Positions 5,815 through 25,345 of a stretch of 27,627 nt of DNA are shown piece by piece. Both the position numbers and the translations under genes were made by a program. The stretch is from a virus (Duplodnaviria; Heunggongvirae; Uroviricota; Caudoviricetes), in IMG/VR virus record IMGVR_UViG_2531839130_000010; one strand, written 5' to 3'. Below the pieces are notes generated by a model. It was not told the DNA's origin, searched no databases, and was given only the letters and a program-made list of their open reading frames with translations. Every line of letters begins with the position of its first letter. Position 1 is the first letter of the stretch.

Positions 5815-6099
5815 ATGAATATTTCAAACGGGCACAACGGTGCTCAGGGCCACACTTTGCCTGAAAAACACAATACCGGTGTTTTTGCCTATGGGTTGTC
5901 AGAGGACAGTTTCGGAAAGCTGACCCGCGCAAGAAATGCCTGCGACATGCTCCAGCTTCTCTTTTCTGAATACCCGTCTCAGGCCGGAGCACTGGACACT
6001 GGCTGTGCGCATGGTGTCGCCGCGCTGATGGAGTACCTGCTGGCAGATTTGACGGATATTGCACACAGCTGCGCACTGATTGAAGGAGGTGCCAGATGA
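5815..6099 (+). CDS. Hypothetical protein (94 aa)
   Basis: ORF track; GGAG RBS; stop overlaps next start. Confidence 0.5.
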   Translation: MNISNGHNGAQGHTLPEKHNTGVFAYGLSEDSFGKLTRARNACDMLQLLFSEYPSQAGALDTGCAHGVAALMEYLLADLTDIAHSCALIEGGAR

Positions 6100-9148: not shown

Positions 9149-9182
9149 GGCTTTGCGTGAGTCTTATTTATTAAGGGTAACA

Positions 9183-9370
9183 GGTGAAACAGGTGGAACA
9201 ACCGTATTTTACAGGGCTGAACCTGTTCCACCTTCTGAAATAGTGAGGTGGAACAGATGTAACGCCAGCCAATCCGCTGTTCCACCTTGTTACCCGCGAT
9301 GTTCCACCGGTGCAGTGTATATAAATGTCTTATAAAACAAAGCTGTAACACATGTTTCACCTGTTCCACC
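9183..9370. repeat. Iteron cluster: 8 copies of TGTT(C/T)CACC in both orientations (candidate crr/ori-type replication element)
   Basis: Copies at 9183-9191(-), 9192-9200(-), 9224-9232(+), 9247-9255(-), 9278-9286(+), 9300-9308(+), 9353-9361(+), 9362-9370(+), immediately downstream of the primase gene. Confidence 0.6.
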
Positions 9371-9458
9371 GCATCAGGGACATAAAGCAGACTGAAACAG
9401 AGGGCATTTTTATCTGGCTGGCTTTCATAGCCACGTCTGAATAACCGCAAGCGCCCGT

Positions 9459-9514
9459 TGTGCCAGCCACCACACACTGAACACCGATAGTGTGCTTGTG
9501 TCAGCCACGACACA
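9459..9514 (+). promoter_or_regulatory. Two TGT-N12-ACA dyads (Ogr/Delta-type activator boxes) upstream of the sid-like gene; candidate late promoter
   Basis: TGTgccagccaccacACA at 9459-9476 and TGTgtcagccacgacACA at 9497-9514, sharing a cagccac core; the sid-like ATG is at 9549. Confidence 0.4.
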
Positions 9515-9548
9515 ATTGACGTAACGAACCAACCCGACAGGAGAAGTC

Positions 9549-10292
9549 ATGAACAATACCGCAGTAAATAACAACCTTTCCACTTTTCCGGCTGTAACGC
9601 AGCGGGCACTGGAAACCATGAACACAGCCAGAAACGCATGGCTTGAAGCACGTCGTCAGCAGAAAGCGGCAGCGGATAATATTGCGACAATCCGCCAGCG
9701 TCGCGCTGAAATGGAAGCCACGACGAACACACTGAATGAGGAGTGGCGCACGCTGTTTCGTGAAAGTCAGGGCGTGGTCTCAAAGGAAATGAAAAAACTG
9801 CGCACGGAAATTGCGCTGGGACGAGAAACGCTTGAGGATTTTGATGAGCTGCTGGCGGCTCAGGAAAGCGAAAATGCACTTTTGCCGCAGAAAGCTGCAG
9901 AATTAGCCGGAAAGTATATCCACGCGCATAACATTCTTGTGGATATTCGCGCAAAACAAATCTGGGAGGATTTTATGCAGTCGCATGGAAAAGCGCTTAT
10001 TCAGACGCTGAGCCTGCTTAAATCCACAATGGGCCGGGAAGCCAGTGCCGTTGTGGGTGTGGTGAATTCAGTTAATGACCCGGACACAGTGCTGAAAGAC
10101 TTTATTCATAAACATATCACCAGACCGGCTCTGGCTAACGATGCGATGCCTGAGCAGGACCCGGTGTTTAAACTGGCGGGAGTTGCCCCGGATTATGCGG
10201 CGCGTCTGGATTTCAGTAATCAACTCTCTCCGGCAGCTATGCATAAAATTAAGGTTCGTCAGGAACTTGCTGAGAAGGAGAAAGCAGTATGA
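9549..10292 (+). CDS. Sid-like (capsid size determination) protein candidate, 247 aa
   Basis: Position after primase/iterons and before psu-like and delta genes; size close to P4 Sid; helical, charged sequence; AGGAGA RBS. No motif-level proof. Confidence 0.4.
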   Translation: MNNTAVNNNLSTFPAVTQRALETMNTARNAWLEARRQQKAAADNIATIRQRRAEMEATTNTLNEEWRTLFRESQGVVSKEMKKLRTEIALGRETLEDFDELLAAQESENALLPQKAAELAGKYIHAHNILVDIRAKQIWEDFMQSHGKALIQTLSLLKSTMGREASAVVGVVNSVNDPDTVLKDFIHKHITRPALANDAMPEQDPVFKLAGVAPDYAARLDFSNQLSPAAMHKIKVRQELAEKEKAV

Positions 10293-10840
10293 CGGCCCGA
10301 GGCACGCCTGACCAGGCACTTACCAGTTTTCGGAATGCCCGCATTCTGTGGGCCGGACATAATGAGAGCCGAAAAGCCGTTGAACAACAGATAACATCTC
10401 TCCTCGCTGCCACAGAAAAACCAGCAGATTATGCCCGACAGCTCGAATTACTGCGGGAACGTCTGGATGTGCTGAAATGGCAAATTAACTGTGCTGCGCG
10501 CGAATGCATTTACTCGCAGCATTTACTGATGGAGGCCTGCACAGAAGCCGCTCTCAGCAATTTTATGCAGGCGAATGGGGCAGCCCTGACATCTGCACTG
10601 GCTCCGTTCCTGAAGGGGCGCGGAGGGGTTGACGTTGCGTCCCGTATATTACGCAGTGCTCTGGTTCGCCAGCTGGCAATAACACCGCCTGAAATTGCTG
10701 GGGATTATCGTGAGATCCTGGATGAATCCGGTTTGATGCCTGACCCCGGGATGATTCGTGATTGCCAGGGTTCTTACACCCCGGCACAACATCTGCGTTT
10801 TCAGCAACGCCTGAATGACATTAACGATATACAGGAGTGA
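10289..10840 (+). CDS. Psu-like (polarity suppression) protein candidate, 183 aa
   Basis: Size and position next to the Ogr/Delta gene as in P4-like elements; AGGAGA RBS; start overlaps upstream stop. Assignment by synteny only. Confidence 0.4.
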   Translation: MTARGTPDQALTSFRNARILWAGHNESRKAVEQQITSLLAATEKPADYARQLELLRERLDVLKWQINCAARECIYSQHLLMEACTEAALSNFMQANGAALTSALAPFLKGRGGVDVASRILRSALVRQLAITPPEIAGDYREILDESGLMPDPGMIRDCQGSYTPAQHLRFQQRLNDINDIQE

Positions 10841-10845
10841 TATTA

Positions 10846-11118
10846 ATGGCACTTAAATGTCCGGAATGCGGTACAGTTGCACACGCCAGAACAGCAGCCT
10901 ATGAAGCTCCGTCAGTTAAACGCTCGTGGTATCAGTGCCAGAATCTGGAATGTTCCTGCACATTTACGGCACTGGAGAGTGTGGATAAGATAATCATGAA
11001 ACCCCGGCGCAATGAACAGGAACCAGACAAATCACAACCCCCGGTAAAACAACAGCAAACGCTCAATCGCTATGGCTCCGCGTCAAAACTGTCAAGCCGT
11101 CAGCAGATTCCTGTCTGA
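10846..11118 (+). CDS. Ogr/Delta-family zinc-finger late-gene transcriptional activator (90 aa from ATG 10846)
   Basis: MALKCPECGTVAHARTAAYEAPSVKRSWYQCQNLECSCTF has the C-x2-C ... C-x4-C spacing and HART motif of P2 Ogr / P4 Delta; AGGAG RBS 8 nt upstream. Track start 10837 is a GTG. Confidence 0.8.
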   Translation: MALKCPECGTVAHARTAAYEAPSVKRSWYQCQNLECSCTFTALESVDKIIMKPRRNEQEPDKSQPPVKQQQTLNRYGSASKLSSRQQIPV

Positions 11119-11141
11119 TTAGAAAAAAACGCCCACGTAAT

Positions 11142-11165
11142 CCCGGTCGAGTACCGGGATTTTTA
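11142..11165 (+). terminator. Rho-independent terminator after the delta gene
   Basis: Hairpin cccggt-cgagt-accggg followed by aTTTTT. Confidence 0.6.
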
Positions 11166-11512
11166 ACACCTTTTCCCTGGCTGGCCTGAGAGCGTATGAG
11201 TGCATGTCTATGGCGCATGAAAATGCATGAGTCTTATGCACCCTTTTTGAGGCGAAAACCTTTGTGTGGTGGTATCTGAGACGATTTATGGCATGCATGA
11301 AAACCAGTCTGTTAAGCGAAGCGGGCAGGCGTGCGGGGCTGCCCGCGTAAGGGCGTTGAATGGTATAACTATGGCACGGTTACCGCATGTTTTGAGCTGT
11401 AATCGAAGTTATGAAAATTACTATATAAAGCGGTCGCTGTTGTGGAGATACGATTGCGGGAAGTGATGGAAAGAGCTATAAAAAGTACAGAGGATAGTTT
11501 AATGAGGGTATT

Positions 11513-12790
11513 ATGAACCGTCAGCCGTTTACTTCAGCAGCACTTAAACGAAACTTAAGTGAAAGTGAGAAGGCTTATTATTTTAAAAAAAATAATGTTG
11601 CTGAGTTAGAATCATTAATTAGTGATGCCGTTTTAATTGCTAATGAGAATTTTCGCTCTGGTGTGAGTGTAAAGAAACTAAATATTAAGGGACGCTGCGT
11701 TTACACTGCTTCATGTTTGAAGGAAAAAATAATACTTAGACATTGCAATGCAAATTTAAAATGCCTTGAATCGCTTCGTCCCAAACAACGAAATACAATA
11801 ATTAGTGAGCTTAAAATTTATTTGGAAGAAGGTACTCCATTCAAAATATATCGTTTGGATATAAAGTCTTTCTTTGAATCAATTGATTTACCGCAGCTTT
11901 TTCAGCTCTTACATAACGAAACACGACTGTCTAGACATACAAAAAATTTGCTAGAATGGTATCTTAAATCGTGTGAAAGGCTTCACTCTTCGAAAGGATT
12001 ACCTAGAGGGTTAGAAATTAGTCCTATGTTATCAGAATTGTACTTGGCACAATTTGATAATAGTATTCATAGGCATCCAGAAGTATTTTATTATTCAAGA
12101 TTTGTAGATGATATGGTAATCGTTTCAAGTGGTTGTGAATGTGAAGCGTCCTTTATGGAATTTATACAAGATGTATTACCAAAGGGATTGGCTTTAAATA
12201 AAAATAAATTAAAAATATCTCCATGCATACCAAAGAGAAGTAAGGGTTTAAATAAACAGGATAAATTGCTTCATGAATTTGACTTTCTAGGGTACTCGTT
12301 TTCTATAATAGACACACCTTTGAGCAAAGATGGTGAGATTAATAGCTGTTACAGAAAGGTTGTTGTTAATTTATCTAAATCTCGCCTGAAGAAAATTAAA
12401 ACAAGAATAGCTAGGTCTTTCTACTCTTATCATATTAATGGTGATTTTAAACTATTGCTAGACAGGATTTCTTTTTTGACTAGTAACAGGGATTTAAATC
12501 GCAAAATAAAATCGTTAAGTTCTTTAGAAAAAAGCAAGATAAGTACAGGTATTTATTACAGTAATGCGAAGTTAGATGTTGACTCCATATCCCTAAAAAA
12601 ATTAGATGACTTTTTGCTATATTGTGTGCAATCTAATACTGGGCGTTTGAATAGTGTTGCAAAAAAACCTTTTAATTTGAAGCAAAAAAAAGAACTGCTA
12701 AGAAATAGTTTTAGAAAAGGCTTTGTGGATAGAGTATATAGAAAGTATAACTTTAAGCGCTATACTGAGATTACAAAAATATGGTTATAA
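11513..12790 (+). CDS. Reverse transcriptase, 425 aa (UG3-like; first gene of a DRT type 3-like pair)
   Basis: RT motifs read directly: YRLDIKSFFESI (motif 1/2), GLPRGLEISPMLSELYL (motif 4), RFVDDMVIV (catalytic motif 5), FLGYSF (motif 7). Strongly AT-rich versus the P4 backbone; stop overlaps next gene start. Confidence 0.8.
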   Translation: MNRQPFTSAALKRNLSESEKAYYFKKNNVAELESLISDAVLIANENFRSGVSVKKLNIKGRCVYTASCLKEKIILRHCNANLKCLESLRPKQRNTIISELKIYLEEGTPFKIYRLDIKSFFESIDLPQLFQLLHNETRLSRHTKNLLEWYLKSCERLHSSKGLPRGLEISPMLSELYLAQFDNSIHRHPEVFYYSRFVDDMVIVSSGCECEASFMEFIQDVLPKGLALNKNKLKISPCIPKRSKGLNKQDKLLHEFDFLGYSFSIIDTPLSKDGEINSCYRKVVVNLSKSRLKKIKTRIARSFYSYHINGDFKLLLDRISFLTSNRDLNRKIKSLSSLEKSKISTGIYYSNAKLDVDSISLKKLDDFLLYCVQSNTGRLNSVAKKPFNLKQKKELLRNSFRKGFVDRVYRKYNFKRYTEITKIWL

Positions 12791-14799
12791 AGAAAAACAT
12801 TAAACTTGATAAGAAAGATTATCTCAGGGCTTTACTATGTGATACACTGCCCGGTGATTGTCCAATTATTTTTTCAAATGATGGCTTATATATAAACTTA
12901 ACAGAATATGATAGAGTTTGTAATGATTTGTTACATTTTACTCCGGTTTCTTCTTTCTTAAAAAAAATAGTTAACCCTAATTTAGACTCTTCTATTAGTG
13001 TCGCAGATCGCCACCGAGAAAAGAAGAAACAAAGCTCCCCATTTGGCTATTGTATAGTAAAAGATGCCTTTAGCCAAAGACATCTTTCTTTAATTCACCC
13101 AAGATCTCAAATTAATTATTCGGAATTTTATAAAACATACTCATCCGTTATCACATTAAATACTTTAAAAAGTAATTTTTCTATTCGCTACCCACGTAAG
13201 GTCGCTAACTCTTTCTTTTTATATGAAAATAATGCTTTGGAAAAATATAAAGGGGAAGATATCGAAACAACAAAGGATGAGTTAATGAGGAAATATTCAT
13301 CCTCTTATTTTAGTTATGGCGGTTTCAACAGGATATATAAACTATTTCAAAGTAAGATGTTTATTGAGCTTGAGAAAAGATTCTCGGTGATGTGGATGTT
13401 AGATGTATCACATTGTTTTGATAGCATATATACGCATTCGGTTTCTTGGGCATTAAAAAATAAATCATATATAAAAAAACATGTTAAACACAGCAATCAA
13501 TTTGGACAAGAATTAGATACACTGATGCAACGTAGCAATAATAATGAAACAAATGGAATACCTATTGGTTCAGAGTTTAGCAGGGTTTTTGCAGAATTAA
13601 TATTTCAGCGAATTGATTGCAATATTGAGTCATGCCTTCTTAGTGAACATGGATGGGTTAATAATAAAGATTATGTTATATTGAGATATGTAGATGATTT
13701 TATTGTTTTTTGTAATGGTGAGTCAAGTGCCGAAGTTATTACAAAAATAATTAATGTGAAGTTAAATGAATATAATCTACAATTAAATGTAAACAAGCTT
13801 AAGAAGTATTCTAGGCCATTTTGCACTAGCAAGACAAGTTTGATTGTCAAAGTTAATGAATTAATTCGCAATTTAGAAATTAAACTGTATGAAAAACGTG
13901 ATAGTGGCTTTACTTTAAATAAAATAAGAAGTAAGCATGATTTAAAGATATATGTAATTAATCATGTCAAGTCTATATGCATTGAAAATCAAGTGTCTTA
14001 TTCTGATGTTTCATCATATATAATATCATCTCTTTCCAAAAGATTAATATCAATAATTGATATATTACGAGTTCAAGAAAATGAAGATGATGTAGATGTA
14101 AAAAAAAGGATTAAGGACTTAATTTTCACAATAACCGATATTATGTTGTTCTTTTTCAGTGTTAACCCAACTGTTTCATCATCTTATAAATTATCAAAGA
14201 CAATGGTTGTTGTTAATAACTATTTGAATGAAATATCTAGTGACTATAGTAGTATTTTTATGACTACGTTAGTGAATGCTGCGGAAAACATTAATTTTGG
14301 TGAGAATGATAATGGGCTGTTTATTGATGATTTCATTTCAATTGAAAAGGTTAATTTAATCTTGGCTGCTACTTTTTTTGGAGATAATTATCTTATAAGT
14401 GACAGTTTTTTTCATGGAGTTATACATAAAAAGAAATTGGACTACTTTACTATAATCTCACTGCTATTCTATTTTAGAAACAGAAGATCATTCCGAAAAT
14501 TGAAGTGTATAATAGAGGGTGAAATAAAGGAAATATTAAGTTCTAATATGGATTTGCTGCAATCATCGGAAAAGGCACATTTATTTTTGGATGTCATGTC
14601 ATGTCCATTTGTCTCAATAGAGACAAGGCGTTTTTTATATAGAAAATATCTCAAGAGCTATGAGCCAAAGCTGAACAGAAGTCATCTGGAGATTGAGAAT
14701 GATTTGCAATCTCTGCTTCAAACATATTGGTTTGTCAAGTGGGATGAGTTAGATATTGTGAAAATGATTGAGAAAAAAGAATTGAAAGAAAGCTATTAA
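12781..14799 (+). CDS. Reverse transcriptase, 672 aa (UG8-like; second gene of a DRT type 3-like pair)
   Basis: RT motifs: MLDVSHCFDSI (motif 2), GIPIGSEFSRVFAELIF (motif 4), RYVDDFIVF (catalytic motif 5), LQLNVNKLKKY (motif 6); long N- and C-terminal extensions; 10-bp overlap with the upstream RT gene. Confidence 0.8.
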   Translation: MVIKKNIKLDKKDYLRALLCDTLPGDCPIIFSNDGLYINLTEYDRVCNDLLHFTPVSSFLKKIVNPNLDSSISVADRHREKKKQSSPFGYCIVKDAFSQRHLSLIHPRSQINYSEFYKTYSSVITLNTLKSNFSIRYPRKVANSFFLYENNALEKYKGEDIETTKDELMRKYSSSYFSYGGFNRIYKLFQSKMFIELEKRFSVMWMLDVSHCFDSIYTHSVSWALKNKSYIKKHVKHSNQFGQELDTLMQRSNNNETNGIPIGSEFSRVFAELIFQRIDCNIESCLLSEHGWVNNKDYVILRYVDDFIVFCNGESSAEVITKIINVKLNEYNLQLNVNKLKKYSRPFCTSKTSLIVKVNELIRNLEIKLYEKRDSGFTLNKIRSKHDLKIYVINHVKSICIENQVSYSDVSSYIISSLSKRLISIIDILRVQENEDDVDVKKRIKDLIFTITDIMLFFFSVNPTVSSSYKLSKTMVVVNNYLNEISSDYSSIFMTTLVNAAENINFGENDNGLFIDDFISIEKVNLILAATFFGDNYLISDSFFHGVIHKKKLDYFTIISLLFYFRNRRSFRKLKCIIEGEIKEILSSNMDLLQSSEKAHLFLDVMSCPFVSIETRRFLYRKYLKSYEPKLNRSHLEIENDLQSLLQTYWFVKWDELDIVKMIEKKELKESY

Positions 14800-14972
14800 T
14801 TTGATAAATATGAGTCGTGGTCAGTTTCAAAATACTTACGTCATCGTCGTCGGTGTATTTTATATCGATTATGAAGACGATTTCGCTGGAACTGAAATCG
14901 GCTTGAATGCTTAAACTTAAGCTAAAAAAACAGTTTGAGACCAAAGCCTAAATTATTAGGCTTTGGATTTTC
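14800..14972 (+). ncRNA. Candidate structured non-coding RNA downstream of the RT pair, ending in a terminator hairpin
   Basis: No credible ORF; local self-complementarity (atcgtcgtc ... gaagacgat); ends with hairpin ccaaagcct-aaattatt-aggctttgg plus ATTTT at 14941-14971. Purely a candidate. Confidence 0.2.
14941..14971 (+). terminator. Rho-independent terminator downstream of the RT operon
   Basis: Perfect 9-bp stem ccaaagcct/aggctttgg, 8-nt loop, followed by aTTTT. Confidence 0.55.
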
Positions 14973-15191
14973 AGGTTCAGTTGAGAGTAATTGCTGTCTG
15001 TTTATTGCTTAACCAATACAGTTAGTGGTGCTTACACACCTGATGTTGAGAAACTGACCACACCAATACAACCTTTTGTTTGTCTTCAACTGTGTAGACT
15101 ACTAAACACGAATCAGCAGTTAGGGGCATGTATGGGGGCATTGGTTTTAATTTTTTATAAAATATCAATTTTTTCATATTGTTAAGTTATT

Positions 15192-15218
15192 GTTCGACTC
15201 CTATTATCGGCACCATCA
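15192..15218 (+). repeat. attR core of the P4-like element: second copy of the 27-bp tRNA-Thr 3'-end repeat
   Basis: Exact copy of 2302-2328; no tRNA body upstream of it. Confidence 0.8.
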
Positions 15219-15821
15219 AGAAAATCAATAACTTAGCTTAACTTCTCTAAGAAATTGTATCTTCTGTTATCACTTACAAACGCCTATACGTTGTTATGGG
15301 CTTTGGTAGTGTAACACGTATGGGCGAGTAGTTCCCAGGCTCAACCTCGTAACAAGTTCCTTTGAAGCTGGAAGACGTGCCACCGTCTCTAAACCTTCTA
15401 CCAAAACTCTTAGCAAGATGTTCCACACCTGGCGCGGTGTCCAATGATGCTACACGTCGTGAGACGTTGCAGAGGATAAACAGGCTAAATGATGGGAAGA
15501 GTTTTAAGTGCAATAGTGGATTAAAGCCCACCTCTTCAAAACCTAACTTGATCGGGAAAGAATCAAGCTCTAGCACGGTTTCGTCCACCGGAGTACAACG
15601 GGTGCCTGATAAGAGAAGAACTGCTAAGACTTCATAGCTTTTGTGAAAAAGCCCTTTTTAGTGGATACGCCTACGGCGCTTATTTTTTGGTATAACCATC
15701 AAAGGCGCTTTATGGCTCCTATTGTCTTGAAAATGTATCTTTACTTGTATTGTGTTTTATGCGTAGCCTTCCTGTGTAGTATGTAACTTGTTCATTTTCA
15801 TATGAATACAGAGGCAACACG

Positions 15822-15974
15822 ATGAAAAACATTGCAGCTATCAAACGTAATAACCGCAAGATTCACGCTCGTAAGTTCCTGTCTACGCCAGAAGGAAAAG
15901 CCTGGCTAGAGCGTAAACAGCGAGAGAACGAAGAAAGAAAACTCCTTAGTGAGTTGAAATGGCTTAAGGATTGA
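15822..15974 (+). CDS. Small basic hypothetical protein (50 aa; below ORF-track cutoff)
   Basis: Manual translation MKNIAAIKRNNRKIHARKFLSTPEGKAWLERKQRENEERKLLSELKWLKD; GAGG-like RBS about 9 nt upstream. Confidence 0.3.
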   Translation: MKNIAAIKRNNRKIHARKFLSTPEGKAWLERKQRENEERKLLSELKWLKD

Positions 15975-16539
15975 ACCACCAGTAGGCGCATAACACATCC
16001 AGCGATCAAAGATGTGTTTATGCACCTGATAGTGAAATTATTAAAGTCGTTTAGTTAACATCGCCATTGCTTGAGCAATAATTGCAACAGCGTCCATCTC
16101 TTCACTGGAAGCGATGCAAATGCGGTAACTAATAGCCACAACGAATACATCAATAACGAGAAAGTGAATAGTGTGAAGATGTTTTGAAAGTAAATGCATA
16201 ACTTCCTCCGGTTTTACGATAGGAAGATTAGAACATGCATTAAATGATGTTACAAGGGTGGTAATTTACCCTAATAGTCTACTATTCACCTCAATCTACG
16301 TCAACCAATATTTGATGTAGATTTAATTTTCTTTTAAAAACAATATGTTGCAATTTGTTGAATTTTGGGGTTAGGTTGTTTTTTGAACGTTTTCATCAAG
16401 TGTAAAGATACGTTTAGCCTTCATAGTGAGTTCAGTTACTGTCTTTTTCTCTGAAATCGGCGCAGACGTGATCAATGTTTAACGCGAAGATCAGCGGCGT
16501 CAGGTCCACGCAGCGACAATTCTCAAATATCAGGAGGCA

Positions 16540-17097
16540 TTACGCTTCCTGCTCTTTCTTGATACGTTGCACCGTCTGTGTGCTGACACTGAAATCTTTT
16601 GCTACGCTCCGAATTGATCCACCATTCGCGAGAGCGGCAACAATTCCCGCTCGATCAATTGCTTTTCCATTACCACGTTTTGCTATACGTCCAGCGGCCT
16701 TAGCTGCGGCGATCCCCTCACGCTGCCGCTCAAGCATCATTTCACGTTCCATTTGTGCCACTGCTGCAAGCACTGTGAGCATCATATTCCCTGCGGGAGA
16801 GTTCTTCCCTGTCTTAAAGTCTTCTTTATGGAAATGCACAGACACGCCGCGCTCTGTTAATTGCTCAACCGTTGCCAGAAGGTCGGCTGTATTACGACAA
16901 AGGCGATCAATACTATGGACGTGTAACACGTCACCCTCCCGCACATAGTTCATCATTGCCTCAAACTGTGGGCGCTGAGTGTTCTTGCCTGACGCTTTAT
17001 CTTCAAAGACTTTATCAAGAGTTACTCCAGCTAATTGACGGTCTGTGTTTTGTTGCACAGTCGATACCCTAATGTATCCAATATTAGCCATTTTCAT
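16540..17097 (-). CDS. Serine recombinase (resolvase / DNA invertase family), 185 aa
   Basis: N-terminal catalytic signature IGYIRVSTVQQNTDRQ (active-site Ser), resolvase core, C-terminal HTH GGSIRSVAKDFSVSTQTVQRIKK; AAGGA RBS. Confidence 0.85.
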   Translation of the reverse strand: MKMANIGYIRVSTVQQNTDRQLAGVTLDKVFEDKASGKNTQRPQFEAMMNYVREGDVLHVHSIDRLCRNTADLLATVEQLTERGVSVHFHKEDFKTGKNSPAGNMMLTVLAAVAQMEREMMLERQREGIAAAKAAGRIAKRGNGKAIDRAGIVAALANGGSIRSVAKDFSVSTQTVQRIKKEQEA

Positions 17098-17655
17098 TTT
17101 CCTTCTGTGTTGATTTGTGTGTAGTGATTATTGATCGTGTTGATTAGGTGTGTAAAGGACTTTTTTCACTACGAAATTCGAAGGTTTTTAGTGTGGTGAT
17201 TTAGCCTGCTTTATCACTACACGTCTTGCATGAGAATCATGTAGTTACATTTTGGTAAAATTAGCAAGCTATTAAATAGTGTGTTTATTTTGAAAAAATA
17301 ATTTTTTGTTGCATTAAAGGAAACTTGTTCGACAAATAATAGATTGATTTTTAATCAACAATTTCTGATAGTGCTCTGTAAGCCGTATTACACAAGGCTT
17401 TGCGAAAGTGATGTAAAAGTGAAGAAAGCTAACATTGCACTTTTTAAGCTACTTTTCATTGGATTTTTACGTAGGAATTACACAGGGATTAATCATCAAT
17501 TACATTGAATTTAAGCCTGTTTTAGATGTTTAATTTTGGTAGCAAGAAACACTTTTAGAAGATCATTGCACAGATGCTATGTGATGATTGGATGTAACGG
17601 TAGGTCACTGTGAGCTACCCCTATCAAGTCTGATACCCGATAAGTATAAATAACA

Positions 17656-17756
17656 CCTGGGAAATGAGTTCCGATCTATTTAGGAAATAACCGTGGAAGT
17701 GGTTTCCTACCTACCTAGGAAATGAGTTCCTATCACCTAGGAAATGATTTCCGACA
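17656..17756. repeat. Cluster of near-palindromic direct repeats CCT(A/G)GGAAATGA(G/T)TTCC (3 copies) plus a related dyad; candidate protein-binding sites
   Basis: Copies at 17656-17674, 17714-17734, 17736-17756; dyad taggaaa-N15-tttccta at 17681-17709. Core GGAAAT-N-ATTTCC is palindromic. Confidence 0.5.
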
Positions 17757-18147
17757 ATACTATAATTAAACTACAATTAAACTATATAATATAATTCTTT
17801 TTTATCTTTATAAGAATAATTATAGGGATACCCGTTAGGGAGTCTAACGACTATCCCTTAATCTATTGGCATTCGCCAGAACCTTGCACAAGTTAGAGTG
17901 TTAGTCGTTAGACTGCTTGTCATAACACATAGTTTTTGTTTGTTGATGTTAGTTAGTAGATCTATGTTCGCTAATGCCGCTCACAACGAATATGTAATCT
18001 ACTATGTGCAAATAGCCTACGGCTTGCGTAAGGCTAAATAGTCTTGCGCTGTGCGCTTCAATAGTTCCATTGATGAGGCTTATGATCTTACCCAGCAATA
18101 GTGGACACGCGGCTAAGTGAGTAAACTCTCAGTCAGAGGTGACTCAC

Positions 18148-18447
18148 ATGACAAAAACAGTATCAACCAGTAAAAAACCCCGTAAACAGCATTCGCCTGA
18201 ATTTCGCAGTGAAGCCCTGAAGCTTGCTGAACGCATCGGTGTTACTGCCGCAGCCCGTGAACTCAGCCTGTATGAATCACAACTCTACAACTGGCGCAGT
18301 AAACAGCAAAATCAGCAGACGTCTTCTGAACGTGAACTGGAGATGTCTACCGAGATTGCACGTCTCAAACGCCAGCTGGCAGAACGGGATGAAGAGCTGG
18401 CTATCCTCCAAAAGGCCGCGACATACTTCGCGAAGCGCCTGAAATGA
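18148..18447 (+). CDS. insE: IS3 transposase OrfA (HTH DNA-binding subunit)
   Basis: [28 protein letters not shown]... recognised as IS3 OrfA; ATG at 18148 with GAGGTG RBS (track start 18139 is a GTG). Confidence 0.9.
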
Positions 18448-19310
18448 AGTATGTCTTTATTGAAAAACATCAGGCTGAGTTCAGCATCAAAGCAATGTGC
18501 CGCGTGCTCCGGGTGGCCCGCAGCGGCTGGTATACGTGGTGTCAGCGGCGGACAAGGATAAGCACGCGTCAGCAGTTCCGCCAACACTGCGACAGCGTTG
18601 TCCTCGCGGCTTTTACCCGGTCAAAACAGCGTTACGGTGCCCCACGCCTGACGGATGAACTGCGTGCTCAGGGTTACCCCTTTAACGTAAAAACCGTGGC
18701 GGCAAGCCTGCGCCGTCAGGGACTGAGGGCAAAGGCCTCCCGGAAGTTCAGCCCGGTCAGCTACCGCGCACACGGCCTGCCTGTGTCAGAAAATCTGTTG
18801 GAGCAGGATTTTTACGCCAGTGGCCCGAACCAGAAGTGGGCAGGAGACATCACGTACTTACGTACAGATGAAGGCTGGCTGTATCTGGCAGTGGTCATTG
18901 ACCTGTGGTCACGTGCCGTTATTGGCTGGTCAATGTCGCCACGCATGACGGCGCAACTGGCCTGCGATGCCCTGCAGATGGCGCTGTGGCGGCGTAAGAG
19001 GCCCCGGAACGTTATCGTTCACACGGACCGTGGAGGCCAGTACTGTTCAGCAGATTATCAGGCGCAACTGAAGCGGCATAATCTGCGTGGAAGTATGAGC
19101 GCAAAAGGTTGCTGCTACGATAATGCCTGCGTGGAAAGCTTCTTTCATTCGCTGAAAGTGGAATGTATCCATGGAGAACACTTTATCAGCCGGGAAATAA
19201 TGCGGGCAACGGTGTTTAATTATATCGAATGTGATTACAATCGGTGGCGGCGGCACAGTTGGTGTGGCGGCCTCAGTCCGGAACAATTTGAAAACAAGAA
19301 CCTCGCTTAG
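18444..19310 (+). CDS. insF: IS3 transposase OrfB (DDE catalytic subunit)
   Basis: 288-aa IS3 OrfB with integrase-core DDE region (WAGDITYL ... HTDRGGQY ... [11 protein letters not shown]); overlaps OrfA as in IS3. Confidence 0.9.
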
Positions 19311-19875
19311 GCCTGTGTCCATATTACGTGGGTAGGATCATTACGCCAATCTAACGATCATCAATCTATTTAAGAGAAAATCTATTGTGCAATACTCTGA
19401 CGAGTGCAATAACCTTGTGTGCTACGCGTTAGCGATGTTAGCACATAGACACAGACAACAACCAACAACAAACAAAAAAGAAAGAATGGTTTTAGTAGTT
19501 GAAGGTTAAATAAGTTTCTACCGCTTAAATCAAGCCGTAGGCGAGCTAAACGTATATAAGGCAGGGAAACCTTAGCGGTAATAGATTAGCTCATTATAGA
19601 GCTTCTGAGGAGCTTTACAGGTATTTTATAAGGTGTCTGAAATTAGAGTTTATCTATCATCTCCTTTTCATATACCTAACAAATACAAAATAAGCCCCTT
19701 AAATAAACCTCTGGCGAGCTAAACTGTCATTACATAAGGGAATGTATTGTTTTTATCAAAACCTCGTTAGAACGCGTTTTAGAGAATAAGGAAGAATAGC
19801 ATCACACAGAAGAGCACGAATTGCTAAGCAAAATCATAACATACTGAAAAATGATCAATATTTTATGGGCGGGGG

Positions 19876-19904
19876 TTGACAAAAGCCTTTAGTTATGGTA
19901 AAGT
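19876..19904 (+). promoter_or_regulatory. Candidate sigma70 promoter with extended -10 (TTGACA-N17-TAAAGT, TG at -15/-14)
   Basis: TTGACA 19876-19881, 17-bp spacer, TGgTAAAGT 19896-19904; about 120 bp upstream of the first small gene. Confidence 0.4.
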
Positions 19905-20027
19905 AATATTAGGGACAGGAAAACATTCCTATCCTCTAAATAATTAAACCAATGCACCGCACTTTGAAGCCCAAGAGGCTTGCAAGGTGTCTTTTTCTTC
20001 TAACCAAATAGAATAGGAGGTTAATTA

Positions 20028-20210
20028 GTGAAGTATTTCACTTCTCAAGATGTAGTTGAAGCCTGGAAACGTGGTGAGATCAACCGCTTTAGGGTAAGAA
20101 TGAATAGGAACACAGCGCGACGCTGTGGTTATCCAGAGCGTGAAAAATGTTTTGACGATGCACTAAAAATTATTGATGAACTGCGTAAGGCAGGAGCAGA
20201 GAAAGAATAA
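20028..20210 (+). CDS. Small hypothetical protein (60 aa)
   Basis: ORF track; GTG start preceded by a strong AGGAGG RBS. Confidence 0.45.
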   Translation: MKYFTSQDVVEAWKRGEINRFRVRMNRNTARRCGYPEREKCFDDALKIIDELRKAGAEKE

Positions 20211-20233
20211 TAACAGGAGAAGGAGAAAACCAA

Positions 20234-20422
20234 ATGAATATTAATTTTGATTCTGCAACTTATAACGCGTTGTTAAATCGTGCAAAGGCAGAAGGGAAAT
20301 CAATTCCAAAACTTGTTAATGAATTACTAATTACAGTCCTTACAAAGGAGGAACTAAATGATCAAAAATATCAAAACAATTGCCGAAGCGAAAGCCAAAT
20401 GTCTAAATCAGAAAGATGGTAA
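20234..20422 (+). CDS. Small hypothetical protein (62 aa), possible RHH/CopG-like fold
   Basis: ORF track; GGAGAAGGAG RBS; 3' end overlaps next gene by about 65 nt, so true extent is uncertain. Confidence 0.35.
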   Translation: MNINFDSATYNALLNRAKAEGKSIPKLVNELLITVLTKEELNDQKYQNNCRSESQMSKSERW

Positions 20423-21026
20423 ACAAAAATATGTAGTCGTTGAGCAGTGGTTGAAGATGTTTAAAAAGTGGTTCTCACCGTCAGGTAATGAATACACCGC
20501 TACACTGCCAGCCGTTGAAATCTATAGCTATATAGCTGGATTCAATGAACAAGGGCAAGAATGTTACGCCACTCAAAAAACATTATCTAATATTGGAATG
20601 GTTAGTGATCGCCAGGTTCGCAATATTATAAATATGTTTGTTGATATGGGAGTTCTTTCTGTAGAGGCTCGGGACGGGCAAACATCACTCTATAAAGCAT
20701 TACCATTCACAGATGCACATATTACTCCCCCTGGAGAGTCATCACTACCTGATCCTTCTGAGAAAGAAGACGAATCTAATGAAATATTGAATGTTTCCGA
20801 AATCATCGTTGAAGAAGAAACACAAGAGCCAGAGTTCCCTGAGCGGCCCGAAATTTTTACTTGGCTTCTTTCCCTTGATAAGAAGAAACCACCGCACGAA
20901 GAAACAGAAGATTTTGTAAAACGAGCATTAGATTCAAAGAATATCTATCTTTGTGAAAATGATTTTGACTCTTTGATAATTGATCTCAAAAGTGAGAGCA
21001 CAATATATGATTCACTACCCTTCTAA
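20358..21026 (+). CDS. Hypothetical protein (222 aa) with winged-HTH-like N-terminal region and acidic C-terminus
   Basis: AAGGAGG RBS; segment ATQKTLSNIGMVSDRQVRNIINMFVDMGVLSVEARDGQTSLY resembles a wHTH; acidic EEETQEPEFPERPE stretch. Confidence 0.5.
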   Translation: MIKNIKTIAEAKAKCLNQKDGKQKYVVVEQWLKMFKKWFSPSGNEYTATLPAVEIYSYIAGFNEQGQECYATQKTLSNIGMVSDRQVRNIINMFVDMGVLSVEARDGQTSLYKALPFTDAHITPPGESSLPDPSEKEDESNEILNVSEIIVEEETQEPEFPERPEIFTWLLSLDKKKPPHEETEDFVKRALDSKNIYLCENDFDSLIIDLKSESTIYDSLPF

Positions 21027-21035
21027 GGAGAATAA

Positions 21036-21305
21036 ATGACTTATAACATCACTATAGGAAACAAAACTATTGAAATAACTGAAAGCGGATACAACATTTT
21101 AAAAGCTATTTTGGACATAGAGTTTTCACCACCGACAGTGGTTAGCTTTTGTAGTTTAGGCGGCTACAGCGCACAACACGTAAATCATTGGTTAAATCAT
21201 TTTACATCGTTCGGTGTGCTGGATTATGAAGGGATTAACAGCACTACATTTCGTCTTTTGAAATTAAACAAAGATTTTGAATTGTTTCTCACAAACAATC
21301 AATAA
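21036..21305 (+). CDS. Hypothetical protein (89 aa)
   Basis: ORF track; AAGGAG RBS. Confidence 0.45.
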   Translation: MTYNITIGNKTIEITESGYNILKAILDIEFSPPTVVSFCSLGGYSAQHVNHWLNHFTSFGVLDYEGINSTTFRLLKLNKDFELFLTNNQ

Positions 21306-21402
21306 CAACAGATCGGGCAATACATATGGCAAATGCATTTATGGCGATATTCATCGTAACAATGGCGTCCAGTTTTTATAATCCACATAAAAAGAGGGAA
21401 AA

Positions 21403-21786
21403 ATGGGAAGAAAGAAAAAGAACAACTTAAAACGTATTGAAAAAAACAGTAATTTCAATTCAAAAAGACAACGTCCACCGACACACACCAATAACGAAAT
21501 TCCAGGGGAAGAGATAATCTTTATTCTTGAAACAGAATCCCCTGAATTAAGTGATGAAGAATTAGAAATAATCCAATCAATGCCAGGCGTTTACTTTCGC
21601 CCAAGAACAAGAAAACAAACTATCATTTCTGATGGCACTCTGAAACGTTGGCAGCTTTTAGGGTTTAGCTCCTATCATCATTTTTTGGGATTTAACGCTT
21701 TCAATAATTGTGTAGGTGGTGCATCGGAAGTCGATCTGATGGCTCATTTAGAAGATACATTAGCTTCTAACAAACGTTCTAACTAA
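21403..21786 (+). CDS. Hypothetical protein (127 aa)
   Basis: ORF track; GAGGG RBS; basic N-terminus. Confidence 0.45.
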   Translation: MGRKKKNNLKRIEKNSNFNSKRQRPPTHTNNEIPGEEIIFILETESPELSDEELEIIQSMPGVYFRPRTRKQTIISDGTLKRWQLLGFSSYHHFLGFNAFNNCVGGASEVDLMAHLEDTLASNKRSN

Positions 21787-21801
21787 TAAAATGATGGGTG
21801 T

Positions 21802-22047
21802 ATGTATAAGCGCCCAATGAAAATATTCAAAAAAGGAAAAATAATGATTGGCTATATTCAAGAAACACAATTATTTCAGATGATCCTGTCTGATGCAAAA
21901 AACTATGCAGAGTTAATTCGGCTGGCAAAAGAAACAGAAGACTACGAAGCATTAGAGCGTTACCGTGATGAAGTGCTGACGCTCAAGACACCTTTTAACA
22001 TCGTATTGAATATGATTAATGATGCATTACAAGGAGAATACGCATAA
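21802..22047 (+). CDS. Hypothetical protein (81 aa or shorter)
   Basis: ORF track; alternative internal starts possible; stop overlaps next ATG. Confidence 0.4.
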   Translation: MYKRPMKIFKKGKIMIGYIQETQLFQMILSDAKNYAELIRLAKETEDYEALERYRDEVLTLKTPFNIVLNMINDALQGEYA

Positions 22048-22346
22048 TGGAAGAAGATATTAGCAATGCAATGGAACAACTTTTAGATCTGACTATCTCA
22101 CTACAAACAAGAATAAATCAAGCCTATTCAGATTTATGCGATTACACGCTCTCTCAATGCGTTATTAGCTTAATGAAGGTGAATGTAAGCCTTGACGATT
22201 TTATCTCTCTGGTGAGCGTATCAGAGGACGATGCAAAACAGTGTAATCAAATCATCACAGACATCGCCACCACGTTAAAGGTTGCAAGTGAAGAGATTCA
22301 GCAATTAGTAGATGATTTAGCAAAAAGTGCTATTTTCTCTAAATGA
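22047..22346 (+). CDS. Hypothetical protein (99 aa)
   Basis: ORF track; AAGGAGAA RBS; ATAATG overlap with the upstream gene. Confidence 0.45.
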   Translation: MEEDISNAMEQLLDLTISLQTRINQAYSDLCDYTLSQCVISLMKVNVSLDDFISLVSVSEDDAKQCNQIITDIATTLKVASEEIQQLVDDLAKSAIFSK

Positions 22347-22618
22347 TAATGAAAATTATTTGCATTTATAATGATTTTGTTATATAATAATTTTAGGGGT
22401 AGATAAAAAGATTTTAGTTGGTGTTAATCCTTCTACTGTCATAAATCCCTGCATATGGAAGGTGATAGCCTCAAAGGTTGAGTGGCATTAACCTCTAACA
22501 AATATTACCTTCCATCTCTCAAGAAGTTTTAGAATAATCATAACTCCCTCTTTGATTGTTGATTGTTTCTACGTTGTGTTGATGAATGTTGTTAGGCATT
22601 GTGCTTAATTTTGATAAA

Positions 22619-22661
22619 AGCGGGTAGGTGTTATCTCCTTGCCCTTCCCGCTCTTATTTTT
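22619..22661 (+). terminator. Terminator-like hairpin with T-tract
   Basis: agcggg ... cccgct stem (large 22-nt loop) followed by cttattttt; weaker than the other terminators. Confidence 0.3.
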
Positions 22662-23288
22662 CATCTATGCTTATCCTAAAGCTCCTTATTTTGTCAGAAA
22701 ACATTAAAGAGCCTTACACTGATAGTTATATTTTATAACTATTTACTAACATCATTAAACTATTATTTAATGACAGAAGTTAGTAACAGAATAATCTATT
22801 AAGTTGTTGTCAAAAACAATCATCTGCATAGCGTTAGCCGCAAGCAGAGAGAGTTTAGCTAAGAATGGTGCAATAAACTTTGGAAATATTGATAGCAAAA
22901 CGGGTTTTATAGAATGCGGATCTATAAGCTTTGGTTGTAAAAACGATTTTCTGAAACGGTAGATTACTGTTGGTGTAGTTAATCATTATTAAAAATTTAA
23001 TCTGTGAGTAGATTGGAATAGTGATTCCTTAAAATCTGACTGGTGCATCCACACCATGAAAGATAGCGGTTGGCCACCGCGCCCCGAATAGATATTCCTG
23101 ATTGATTCCGCATGTTTTCCTAAGAGCATGTTTTCAGGAGTATCTATTCACCCTTTAAGCATATCATCAAGTATATTTAAAAAGTGTATTTGCTGATATG
23201 TTTAATCCTCTTATAGTTTAACTTATCAATTATGTAATTGCCCGCACGTTAAAGCCCCTTTGCTGGTCAGAATTAACCTCTTACGGCA

Positions 23289-23528
23289 TTGGGGCTTTTT
23301 ATTTGTCTGGCACTAACAGGAACATTATTTATGAAACAAGAAATGATTATCAGCAAAGACGGGGAAACGATGATTGTTAGTGATGAAAACCTCATTAAGG
23401 TTGCCGCACTGTTGGGAGTTACTCCCGAAAGTCTTCGTTCTACCACTGCTCAATTATTTAAATCGGCTGATGCGGTTAGTCTTGCTGATGCCCTTAAATC
23501 TAAAATTAAACAACTGAAAGGAAAATAA
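23289..23528 (+). CDS. Hypothetical phage protein (79 aa; may start at internal Met near 23331)
   Basis: ORF track; first of a co-oriented phage-like gene set. Confidence 0.4.
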   Translation: MGLFICLALTGTLFMKQEMIISKDGETMIVSDENLIKVAALLGVTPESLRSTTAQLFKSADAVSLADALKSKIKQLKGK

Positions 23529-23532
23529 TCTT

Positions 23533-23916
23533 ATGGCTAACCCATATGGAAAATTAAAAGCAGTGAATGCGGATAACTCCCGTTCACGCTGTAAGGTAGT
23601 AGCTTACGCTGCTGATCCAGTGCTGCAAGATCGCCTCGTCAAACTGGCTTCACCTCTCACTGACGATCTTATTGTCGGGGCTTTGCTGAAAGCCGATGGC
23701 ACCAAAGCAACAACCGCATCTGATATTGCTCACGTAGTAGTTGAACCGGCTTATGAAGGACAGGAAAGCGTAGTGGTTGCACATCCTACTTTCGTTATTC
23801 TGGCTGAAGATGGGATTGAATTTAACAGCATGGAAAAGGCAAGTGTTATTGCAAAACTGCAATCTCTCGGCTTTGTAATTGCTGGTTATGAAGAACTTGC
23901 GATCCCTACGACTTAA
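23533..23916 (+). CDS. Phage structural-module protein (127 aa), function unknown
   Basis: ORF track; AAGGA RBS; tight spacing with neighbours. Confidence 0.45.
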   Translation: MANPYGKLKAVNADNSRSRCKVVAYAADPVLQDRLVKLASPLTDDLIVGALLKADGTKATTASDIAHVVVEPAYEGQESVVVAHPTFVILAEDGIEFNSMEKASVIAKLQSLGFVIAGYEELAIPTT

Positions 23917-23930
23917 CAAGGAAAATAATA

Positions 23931-24962
23931 ATGAATGATTTATCAACATATTTTGGCGTTAATACTGCGGTAGTAACTCCATTTGCTTATGAGAATGCAC
24001 TTAATACCCTGATTACTAATCTCGATCTGTTCGATGTGCAATATCATACAGAAAACAGCATTCTTCTTACCGACCTGATTGATCAGTTTGTGCAGGTAGC
24101 TGGGGAAACCTCGCCTTACGCTCAAAGCGACTGGAACGCCTCTAAACGTCAGGAATGGTCAAACAAACTTTTCCAGATGAAACACGTCGGCAGTATTAAC
24201 GCTGTTACTTCTCGTGACCTGGAACAATACAGCCGCCAATATCCAAACCGTTCTGATGCTATGCTGGTAGCGGTTAATGATTTCTCTGAGGCTCATTACC
24301 GTTCACACGCAAACCGTGTTGAAGTGGATCTGATTACCGCGCTGCTGGGCCTGAAAGTTGAATCTGAATATGCCGGACAAGGTGATCTCGACTTCCTCGA
24401 CGGTCAGGCTAAAACCACGGTACCCGCTATCGACTTTGCATCGACTACTGTTAACCCGTTCCTTGCTATTCGTAAAGCGGTGCGCTTACAGAGTGAAAAG
24501 CTGGGGTCTGGTCTTGCTGCAAAGCGAACTGGTGTAATTATCTTTGCTGCTGGCACTGCTGCTGATGGTTTGTCATCTAACCCGCTGATCAGTGACATGG
24601 TGAAATATGCAGGCGATGCGAGTGCTACGGCCCTGTTTACCCGTATGGTTGATTCTAACCCAGCCTATGACTCTTTCCAGATTGGTGGGATCACTGTTAT
24701 TGATGTGTCAATGTTTCCTGAGATTGTTGCTCACATCGGAGAGAACGGTTTCGCAATTGTTCCGGTAATGGATAAAGCGGCACAGTGTTACCAGCTTCAT
24801 AGCGGCGTTGGTGTGCGTCATGCTGAGTTAGGTCAAGATGCCGTGTTGCATCACCAATATCTAATCAAGGATGAATTCCAATTCCCATCTGTGGTTACTG
24901 AGACATCTTATCTGCCAGTAAACAACATTCCGCAAGCTATCATCTTCGGATCTGCTGCGTAA
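23931..24962 (+). CDS. Phage structural protein (343 aa); major capsid or major tail protein candidate
   Basis: ORF track; size and position before the tape-measure-like gene; no diagnostic motif, call by context only. Confidence 0.45.
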   Translation: MNDLSTYFGVNTAVVTPFAYENALNTLITNLDLFDVQYHTENSILLTDLIDQFVQVAGETSPYAQSDWNASKRQEWSNKLFQMKHVGSINAVTSRDLEQYSRQYPNRSDAMLVAVNDFSEAHYRSHANRVEVDLITALLGLKVESEYAGQGDLDFLDGQAKTTVPAIDFASTTVNPFLAIRKAVRLQSEKLGSGLAAKRTGVIIFAAGTAADGLSSNPLISDMVKYAGDASATALFTRMVDSNPAYDSFQIGGITVIDVSMFPEIVAHIGENGFAIVPVMDKAAQCYQLHSGVGVRHAELGQDAVLHHQYLIKDEFQFPSVVTETSYLPVNNIPQAIIFGSAA

Positions 24963-25113
24963 TAAAGCGTTAATAGACGATTCCCCATCGGGGCAATAAG
25001 GGTAAAGGGATTAACTAACCTGTAGGCGCAAATACAGTAACGAATCTCTTTGCCCTTTTTGTTTTTCTACTGTCTACAAACCCAAATAAAAATATATATG
25101 TGAGAGAAAACCA

Positions 25114-25311
25114 ATGAATACAGAAAACCCACAATCCTTTATTCTTAAGGCTGTAAAAGAACTGGCAGCTATTAGCGAGGAATCAGTTATAAACACATCG
25201 GCGCTTTGCCGCCTTTTAGAAATTGATGCAAATAATGTGCGCCAGCGTGTCTTTCAGACTGGGTGCAGCACTTTCGAAGCAATTCAATACTATTGCTCTA
25301 AAAAACAATAA
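25114..25311 (+). CDS. Small hypothetical protein (65 aa), possible tail assembly chaperone by position
   Basis: ORF track; weak RBS. Confidence 0.3.
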   Translation: MNTENPQSFILKAVKELAAISEESVINTSALCRLLEIDANNVRQRVFQTGCSTFEAIQYYCSKKQ

Positions 25312-25345
25312 TAAACAACAATCATAATACAGGGAAACAATTAGC

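Follow-up and report, generated by a model that had tools for sequence, protein, structure and literature searches.

Which protein reads a cluster of near-palindromic repeats that lies in DNA without open reading frames (ORFs), and what is the cluster for? The question is raised by IMG/VR virus record IMGVR_UViG_2531839130_000010, a sequence of 27,627 nucleotides (hereafter the window), which represents a piece of Escherichia coli chromosome. An earlier note, made from the letters alone, had described three such repeats within 100 bp between a serine recombinase gene and an IS3 insertion sequence (IS), and had proposed that they form a site for a sequence-specific, dimeric DNA-binding protein. 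Our analysis places the repeats in an integrated, putative E. coli phage satellite of ~13 kb. The answer that we consider probable is that they are the iterons of the satellite's replication origin, read by its own RepA_N-like initiator.

A pattern search of the window found exact matches to CCTRGGAAATGAKTTCC at 17656, 17714 and 17736, all on the + strand, so that the three copies and the 22 bp between the last two are just as first described. No further CCTRGGAAATGAKTTCC site was detected anywhere in the window with three mismatches allowed. One more copy, the degenerate ACCGTGGAAGTGGTTTCC at 17690-17707, came from a repeat finder. This gives an array of four direct semi-palindromic copies, which start at 17655, 17690, 17713 and 17735 (start-to-start spacing of 35, 23 and 22 bp) and together span 17655-17752. 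The earlier note had also reported a related dyad, taggaaa-N15-tttccta (17681-17687/17703-17709). It is indeed present, but is better explained as an orphan half-site plus the right half of the fourth copy, which had not been counted. The components of the array are the following.

17655..17672, + strand: putative iteron 1, ACCTGGGAAATGAGTTCC, with the core GGAAATGAGTTCC at 17660-17672
17681..17688, + strand: orphan half-site, TAGGAAAT, corresponding to the left arm of the reported dyad
17690..17707, + strand: putative iteron 2, degenerate, ACCGTGGAAGTGGTTTCC, with the core at 17695-17707
17713..17730, + strand: putative iteron 3, ACCTAGGAAATGAGTTCC
17735..17752, + strand: putative iteron 4, ACCTAGGAAATGATTTCC, of the copies the nearest to the AT-rich block

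The repeats are real and non-random, far beyond what chance would produce. The core GGAA-N5-TTCC occurs five times in 27.6 kb, with four of the five occurrences inside 100 bp. Among 1000 shuffled versions that preserved the dinucleotides, the total averaged 0.39 cores, and none had more than two cores within 100 bp. The fifth match, at 20295, was at first considered as an autoregulatory operator. This idea was dropped because the match lies within a ribbon-helix-helix (RHH)-like ORF, where it encodes the residues EGKSIPK and is conserved as coding sequence. Scans of the window with Rfam and for tRNAs returned no matches, and a DNA similarity search of the repeat region against phages found none. 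Nor does the motif come from an IS or a repetitive extragenic palindromic (REP) family, an origin that the earlier note had kept in mind: the repeats are 330 bp away from the IS3 end, and 99.9% identical repeats are found in IS-free loci such as that of E. coli O104:H4.

The surroundings of the array are ORF-free and AT-rich, as stated before, and in uninterrupted relatives this non-coding region extends over ~1.7-2 kb (11993-13666 in locus L001). In the window, IS3 divides it between the array and the promoter of the operon that includes the putative initiator gene, here called repA. The earlier suspicion of a long regulatory region split by IS3 is thus half right: a long non-coding region was later split, whereas its framing as an operator region gives way to origin iterons as the favoured function. 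The features next to the array are listed below.

17756..17825, no strand: AT-rich block of 70 bp, 88-90% A+T in 40-bp windows, beginning 4 bp past the last repeat
17826..17914, no strand: conserved block, almost without variation among loci, that contains nested inverted repeats (17815-17838/17844-17867 and 17841-17858/17897-17914)
18083..19340, + strand: IS3 insertion with the TTA target duplication at 18080-18082 and 19341-19343, foreign to the original element

What the repeats may bind becomes clearer from a comparison of 16 related loci taken from E. coli genomes, IMG/VR and other assemblies; a protein-alignment scan of genome contigs gave two loci only. In 14 of the 16 loci, a short array that varies between loci lies in front of a nearly invariant block, which comprises the AT-rich stretch and ~100 bp of structured sequence. 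The other two, both of type E as defined below, have their own AT-rich block followed by a different downstream sequence. Five types of repeats could be distinguished.

Repeat type A: GGAAATGAGTTCC, 1-4 copies
Repeat type B: GGTCACTGTGAGC, 3 copies
Repeat type C: GTAACGAnnnGTTAC, 4 copies
Repeat type D: ACAGAAnnnTGTTA, 5 copies
Repeat type E: TATCAAnnnTGATA, 2 copies

All five types contain inverted sub-repeats (e.g. GGAA/TTCC, TCAC/GTGA and GTAACGA/TCGTTAC), and the arrays have the semi-palindromic direct repeats expected for the RepA_N family. The spacing in relatives is mostly 22-24 bp, with type C being wider (33-55 bp). Across types A-D the AT-rich block and the DNA downstream of it are nearly identical.

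The motif search across the genome and its relatives, which the earlier note had suggested, returned a single array in the window and, in the 16 loci, the five repeat types, which track a winged helix-turn-helix (wHTH) protein encoded at 20358-21026 in the window. Specifically, the multi-copy repeat beside the AT-rich block fits the type (A-E) of the N-terminal domain of this protein in all 16 loci. The protein was one of two binders proposed from the outset, and the covariation favours it. The other one, the serine recombinase, is contradicted by locus L005, which has type A repeats without a serine recombinase, and by L002, where a nearly identical recombinase accompanies type B repeats; nearly identical recombinases also go together with unrelated repeats in L012 and L017. 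Within the wHTH protein itself, the C-terminal module recombines independently of the repeat type (the window and L003 differ in this module and are both of type A). The RHH-like protein comes in three types over the five RepA types, being identical in B and C and again in D and E. It was rejected as the binder, since the members of each pair have a common RHH protein but different iterons. Repeat type is thus followed neither by the recombinase nor by the C-terminal module nor by the RHH protein, which excludes these candidates, and the N-terminal winged helix is, judging from the aligned loci, the sole compared element that covaries with the repeats. The comparison thus supports the proposal of a site for a sequence-specific and probably dimeric protein. 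It also indicates that array and binding domain are swapped as one cassette.

Single copies of other iteron types accompany the array.

17599..17645, + strand: one "fossil" iteron each of two other types, just ahead of the array, B-like GGTCACTGTGAGC (17603) and E-like TATCAAGTCTGATA (17622)

Single iterons of another type lie upstream of the active array also in L019 (4170-4275) and L016 (4563). Such copies look like a residue of past cassette exchange. Alternatively, they could provide for cross-activation by a co-resident satellite; E. coli genomes have up to four copies of the non-coding region each.

The protein whose type follows that of the repeats has the following organization.

20358..21026, + strand: predicted RepA-like initiator of 222 aa, consisting of an N-terminal RepA_N-like winged helix (residues ~1-122, specificity type A), an acidic disordered linker (128-161), a C-terminal three-helix module and an SSB-like ...DSLPF tail

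The N-terminal domain of ~115 residues is found in five versions that are unrelated or distantly related, and the C-terminal module likewise occurs in several versions. In Pfam, the single hit was HTH_36, which at 23.3 bits stayed below its cut-off of 25. PHROG gave six significant matches, five of them to replication initiators or DnaD-like loaders and one to a family of unknown function. A PDB sequence search with the family profile produced wHTH matches only, all of them insignificant. The AlphaFold model (mean pLDDT of 72, 85-94 over residues 31-100) consists of four parts, including the winged helix and the disordered linker. Its top structural matches are RepA_N initiators and DnaD, and the N-terminal domain accordingly has the RepA_N/DnaD-NTD fold. 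Weak Foldseek matches include wHTH centromere-binding proteins (pNOB8 AspA and TubR).

The extreme C-terminus is conserved in a different way. All family members end in ...D-(S/F/T)-(I/L)-P-F, several of them in ...EDFDIPF or ...EEDDFDIPF. The C-terminal tip of E. coli SSB is DFDDDIPF, and it docks many replication and repair proteins. The likeness suggests that the tail may recruit SSB-interacting replication proteins. Besides the window (20967-21026), the tail is seen after an acidic disordered linker in the family members P0122, P0130, P0016, P0112 and P0141.

The same binding domains occur in phage nucleases. The virulent phage muut (Stephanstirmvirinae, genus Justusliebigvirus; NC_052657) encodes gp094, which combines two wHTH domains with a C-terminal endonuclease domain of the MUG113/T5orf172 type (GIY-YIG superfamily; PF13455 with 22.5 bits, the cut-off being 22.3, and phrog_681 with E 2e-18). 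The second wHTH domain of gp094 is 89% identical in protein sequence to residues 30-122 of the window protein (93.5% in DNA over 261 bp), and the first one has 97-100% identity with its counterpart at the N-terminus of type E RepA. A related nuclease, P0117, has a type D domain in the first position (86% identity over 104 residues). The wHTH-nuclease is present in four phages, and a homology search with the nuclease domain alone returned no candidates. Two more proteins of the island have counterparts in muut. The tape-measure-like protein is homologous to gp017 (E 9e-25), and the Dit-like/baseplate protein shows 50% identity (E 9e-56) to gp018, whose gene adjoins the tape-measure gene and is annotated as "tail fiber protein".

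The element that carries the array can be delimited as follows.

15192..15215, + strand: left end of the satellite, an attachment (att) repeat that copies the 3' end of tRNA-Thr

From this repeat the satellite extends beyond 26730. Positions 15192-26730 are 99.8-99.9% identical to an island located directly beside tRNA-Thr in the O104:H4 strain 2011C-3493, with two differences: IS3 at 18083-19340 and an inverted IS3 from 26731 onwards. When intact, the island is ~13 kb long, is integrated at tRNA-Thr and codes in order for a small serine recombinase, followed by the non-coding region of 1.7-2 kb, a 60-aa ORF, the RHH-like ORF, the 222-aa wHTH protein, several small genes, the decoration-like, major-capsid-like, tape-measure-like and Dit-like/baseplate proteins and a tyrosine integrase, which is the final gene in the intact relative L001. 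The island thus has att repeats and an integrase together with an incomplete set of virion and replication genes, as a satellite should. The recognized satellite genes are only those for RepA and the Dec-like, MCP, TMP-like and Dit-like proteins; no helicase, primase or polymerase was found among the genes that it encodes. Parts of the non-coding region are present in 739 of 5426 complete E. coli genomes, and 62 of these 739 have the four-repeat array at ≥99% identity.

Taken together, the locus combines several helically phased direct repeats, an adjacent AT-rich region and a cognate initiator encoded by the same element, the features by which iteron origins are recognized. We propose that dimers of the 222-aa initiator would bind the semi-palindromic repeats through the RepA_N-like N-terminal winged helix. 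The 22-23-bp spacing of the last three copies would place the bound dimers roughly on one face of the helix, and the assembled complex would open the adjacent 70-bp, ~90% A+T block (17756-17825), a putative DNA-unwinding element. The C-terminal module and the SSB-like tail would then bring in replication proteins of the host or of the helper phage, which the satellite would need because it encodes no helicase, primase or polymerase of its own. The same repeats are the predicted target of the two-headed RepA_N-like/T5orf172 nucleases of Stephanstirmvirinae such as muut, analogous to Odn of phage ICP1.

Several observations weigh against an origin. The RepA_N Pfam model (PF06970) does not match the 222-aa protein. 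The array lies ~1.3 kb upstream of repA, rather than in or beside it as in many replicons. DnaA boxes are found in many, though not all, iteron origins, and there is no TTWTNCACA on either strand of 17098-20357. The GC-skew minimum, 400-900 bp to the left of the repeats, is confounded by gene orientation and is uninformative. The repeat motifs were defined from the very loci compared, and a repressor and its operators would be expected to show just the same covariation between binding domain and sites.

The last point leads to the main alternative, which we regard as unlikely though clearly ahead of the remaining ones: the repeats would form an operator array through which the wHTH protein, as a transcription factor, controls a nearby promoter, for example a leftward one located in the conserved block and transcribing across the repeats into the variable cargo of the left arm. 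A leftward promoter-like sequence, TAGACT-16-TATAAT, does lie just to the right of the array (17846-17819), and covariation of domain and site would also fit immunity-type repressor/operator cassettes. However, the region has 4 promoter-like matches, below the 6.9 of shuffled sequences, and the best structural and PHROG matches of the protein are replication initiators, not regulators. The acidic linker and the SSB-like tail would have no obvious role in a repressor, and a phage nuclease would gain less by aiming at an operator than at an origin. The promoter of the repA operon is also relevant here.

19876..19930, + strand: repA operon promoter-like site, with TTGACA at 19876-19881, a 17-bp spacer and TAAAGT at 19899-19904, followed by a 5' hairpin

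Without IS3 this promoter would be ~0.85 kb from the array, and it has no copy of the motif (19876-19904). The palindrome that follows it, AGGAAAACATTCCT at 19917-19930, was considered as a RepA site and rejected. In relatives its stem is GGAA/TTCC, GAGA/TCTC or AGAA/TTCT around a constant AACA loop; the stem compensates among loci of the same RepA type and therefore represents a hairpin, not a RepA site. This pattern suggests a conserved 5' RNA stem-loop. The layout of a promoter followed by a hairpin (19876-19930) is the same as in the early promoters of muut. Overall, origin iterons are favoured over operators because of the AT-rich neighbour, the cassette exchange, the RepA_N-like fold and the phage nucleases with the same domains.

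Much less probable is a packaging site of the pac or cosB-like kind, with the wHTH protein as a small-terminase-like factor that redirects the terminase of the helper. In its favour, satellites often encode their own packaging specificity, no terminase or other packaging gene was recognized in the island, and the conserved C-terminal module of the wHTH protein could contact a helper protein. There is also a precedent in lambda, where the winged-helix protein gpNu1 recognizes the R repeats, a set of repeated sites in cosB. Nevertheless, none of the terminase-small-subunit families of Pfam and PHROG matched the 222-aa protein, whose top structural matches are RepA_N initiators and DnaD, and the AT-rich block and the SSB-like tail are better suited to origin melting and replisome recruitment.

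We give slightly less credence still to centromere-like partition sites, or to decoys that titrate a phage protein. The weak Foldseek matches to pNOB8 AspA and TubR would fit the former, but no partition NTPase is encoded in the island. The latter is prompted by five strong sigma-70-type early promoters of muut (66500, 67359, 69368, 71677 and 72256; L010), which carry the palindrome GGCGGGAAATGGTTTCCCGCC at about +5 to +25. The core of the palindrome, GGAAATGGTTTCC and once GGAAGTGGTTTCC, is 0-1 mismatch away from two of the three distinct type A cores, with one 13-mer being identical. We first took these palindromes as support for the specificity of the wHTH domain and then downgraded them because they occur in 142 phage records with or without the nuclease gene and, as a single event, the resemblance is within chance. 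They are thus not tied to the domain, the wHTH-nuclease being limited to four phages. About 0.5 such near-matches are expected by chance per 146-kb genome according to our own estimate, and the other four iteron types show no resemblance, so the similarity to type A is possibly a coincidence.

Finally, that the repeats are res, hix or gix-like sites for recombination or regulation by the serine recombinase (16540-17097; PF00239 with E 1e-38, phrog_125 "DNA invertase") is very improbable: its gene is only 560 bp from the array and resolvase/invertase-type enzymes do bind dyad-symmetric sites, but L005, L002, L012 and L017 contradict the pairing, all four copies are direct with no inverted partner site flanking a segment, and no inversion of the region was seen among the E. 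coli matches inspected.

How do the satellite and its putative origin relate to published systems? Barth, Nguyen and Seed (2023) described 224 putative E. coli satellites, which measure ~13 kb, lie beside tRNAs and have genes for Dec, MCP, TMP, a baseplate hub and a tyrosine integrase, and in some members for a serine recombinase, suggested to be an alternative integration route (PMC10448857). They also reported modular RepA_N domains that are mirrored in phage nucleases, the second RepA_N domain of each nuclease being stated to have no satellite counterpart (PMC10448857). The island analysed here belongs to the same element family and has the same phage genes, and the prediction of this family as satellites was made independently. 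In contrast to that study, we find satellite counterparts for both nuclease heads of muut (types E and A), and P0117 carries type D. No origin was mapped in the 2023 work: "iteron" and "noncoding" are absent from its main text, and "iteron" and "origin" from five supplements (PMC10448857). Our literature search found neither follow-up work nor experimental data on helper-induced excision, replication or transfer of these satellites.

The closest functional parallel is PLE, a satellite of Vibrio cholerae. The N-terminal domain of PLE RepA, an initiator of the RepA_N family, is represented by 4ro3, and the protein binds semi-palindromic iterons in a long non-coding region (PMC7145576). PLE RepA has no evident BLASTP similarity to the RepA_N plasmid initiators and was assigned to them by structure (PMC7145576). 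Phage ICP1 in turn encodes Odn, a nuclease that joins a RepA_N-like domain to T5orf172 and cuts the PLE origin at the iterons; its pressure is thought to drive the exchange of the PLE origin together with the RepA_N domain (PMC8263062). The E. coli island resembles PLE in that its array is part of an extended non-coding stretch within an integrated satellite, in that the putative initiator lacks a helicase or primase domain (PLE likewise has no helicase, primase or polymerase), and in that a helper-type phage has a chimeric T5orf172 nuclease with the satellite's binding domain. The differences are also considerable. There is no detectable sequence similarity to PLE RepA. The putative iterons are ~18 bp long at 22-23-bp spacing, compared with three iterons of ~30 bp in PLE. 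For integration the island has a tyrosine recombinase that acts at tRNA genes, where PLE has a large serine recombinase. Unlike PLE, the island has genes for capsid, decoration, tape-measure and baseplate-hub homologues of its own. The muut nuclease has two binding domains, whereas Odn has one.

The arrangement also recalls phage lambda, whose origin has four iterons with internal dyad symmetry beside an AT-rich region. The N-terminal domain of lambda O binds these iterons and covaries with them among relatives; a flexible linker joins it to the C-terminal domain, which recruits the helicase loader. The island shares with lambda the four (here putative) dyad iterons, the AT-rich neighbour, the covarying N-terminal domain and the linker, and there are weak PHROG matches to O-like initiators. 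However, the lambda origin is inside the O gene, whereas the array is ~1.3 kb upstream of repA in non-coding DNA; the island has no gene for a P-like loader, and similarity to Phage_rep_O is weak at best. A variable C-terminal domain is likewise a feature of the RepA_N plasmid initiators of Firmicutes (pSK41 and pTZ2162), from which the present protein differs by the lack of a Pfam RepA_N match and by its Gram-negative host. In the RepA_N plasmids of Firmicutes the iterons are usually within the rep gene.

Beyond the origin itself, we tentatively consider a broader picture, which is possible but well short of probable. It joins two ideas: that the array is contested in a three-way arms race, with at least five RepA-domain/iteron cassettes and two-headed nucleases, and that mimicry of the SSB tail recruits replication proteins. 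According to the former, cassettes would circulate among enterobacterial satellites, leaving single "fossil" iterons upstream of the active array, and each nuclease head would copy a different satellite initiator (E and A in muut, D and A in P0117). According to the latter, the ...D-(I/L)-P-F tip following the acidic linker would recruit, for example, PriA, DnaG or the chi subunit to the origin. To our knowledge, an SSB-like recruitment route has not been described for RepA_N initiators.

The remaining features of the satellite concern its other genes and the state of the copy in the window.

20234..20422, + strand: RHH-like ORF of 62 aa (MNINFDSATYNALLNRAKAEGKSIPKLVNELL...), just ahead of repA, whose start it overlaps in a different frame

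RefSeq leaves this ORF unannotated in L001, the O104:H4 relative. With an RHH gene in front of an initiator gene, the arrangement is reminiscent of plasmid control modules of the copG-repB kind. The left arm, from the att repeat to the non-coding region, is a variable cargo slot that mostly holds the small serine recombinase (16540-17097, - strand, in the window); in L005 (2900-3478) it holds a short tyrosine recombinase and three other genes. The conserved non-coding part has further pairs of repeats, CTAACTACCATCTAACGAT / CTTACGCCAATCTAACGAT and GAAATTTACTTGTGCAAT / AAATCTATTGTGCAAT, ~106-122 bp apart (18060-18082 and 19341-19360 in the window, 4888-5045 in L002 and 5502-5668 in L003). The insertion point of IS3 is exactly within the second CTTACGCCAATCTAACGAT copy. 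Another ORF-free stretch, ~0.9 kb in length (22346-23273; 15985-16976 in L001), separates the small early genes from the decoration and capsid genes. The two IS3 copies (18083-19340 and 26731-27627) are identical and inverted and flank 7.4 kb from the repA operon to the tape-measure-like gene; the pair could be a composite transposon or drive inversion. In the window copy both the array and repA are intact, but IS3 has moved them apart. The second IS3 truncates the tape-measure-like gene (472 aa compared with 613 aa in O104:H4). With this truncation the copy is probably defective for transfer, although it may replicate in trans.

The satellite is not the only element at this site. The left end of a neighbouring P4-like satellite is marked at 2277-2328 by 52 bp copied from the tRNA-Thr 3' end. 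This satellite lies between the tRNA-Thr 3' copies (2277-15215) and codes for an integrase (2421-3680), an alpha-type primase (6476-9148) and Psu/Sid homologues (9549-10840). Its hotspot contains a DRT3 reverse-transcriptase defence pair, Drt3a (11513-12790) and Drt3b (12781-14799). Two unrelated satellites are thus arranged in tandem at thrW. Positions 1-2218 hold a tyrosine recombinase gene (1115-2218, - strand) and a 296-aa ORF without a family match; these, taken with the partial copy of tRNA-Thr at 2277-2328, suggest a third integrated element in the same tandem array.

The present analysis adds a predicted cis-acting site to a satellite family that was predicted in 2023 without an origin or a target sequence, along with four further iteron types in its relatives. 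The array at 17655-17752 would specify the DNA that the initiator binds, the phage nuclease cuts and the satellite swaps in order to escape, which makes the prediction testable. The element is present in hundreds of sequenced E. coli genomes, including the O104:H4 outbreak strains, and its candidate helper phages come from a group used in phage therapy work. With it, E. coli would gain a tractable counterpart to the PLE/ICP1/Odn system of V. cholerae.

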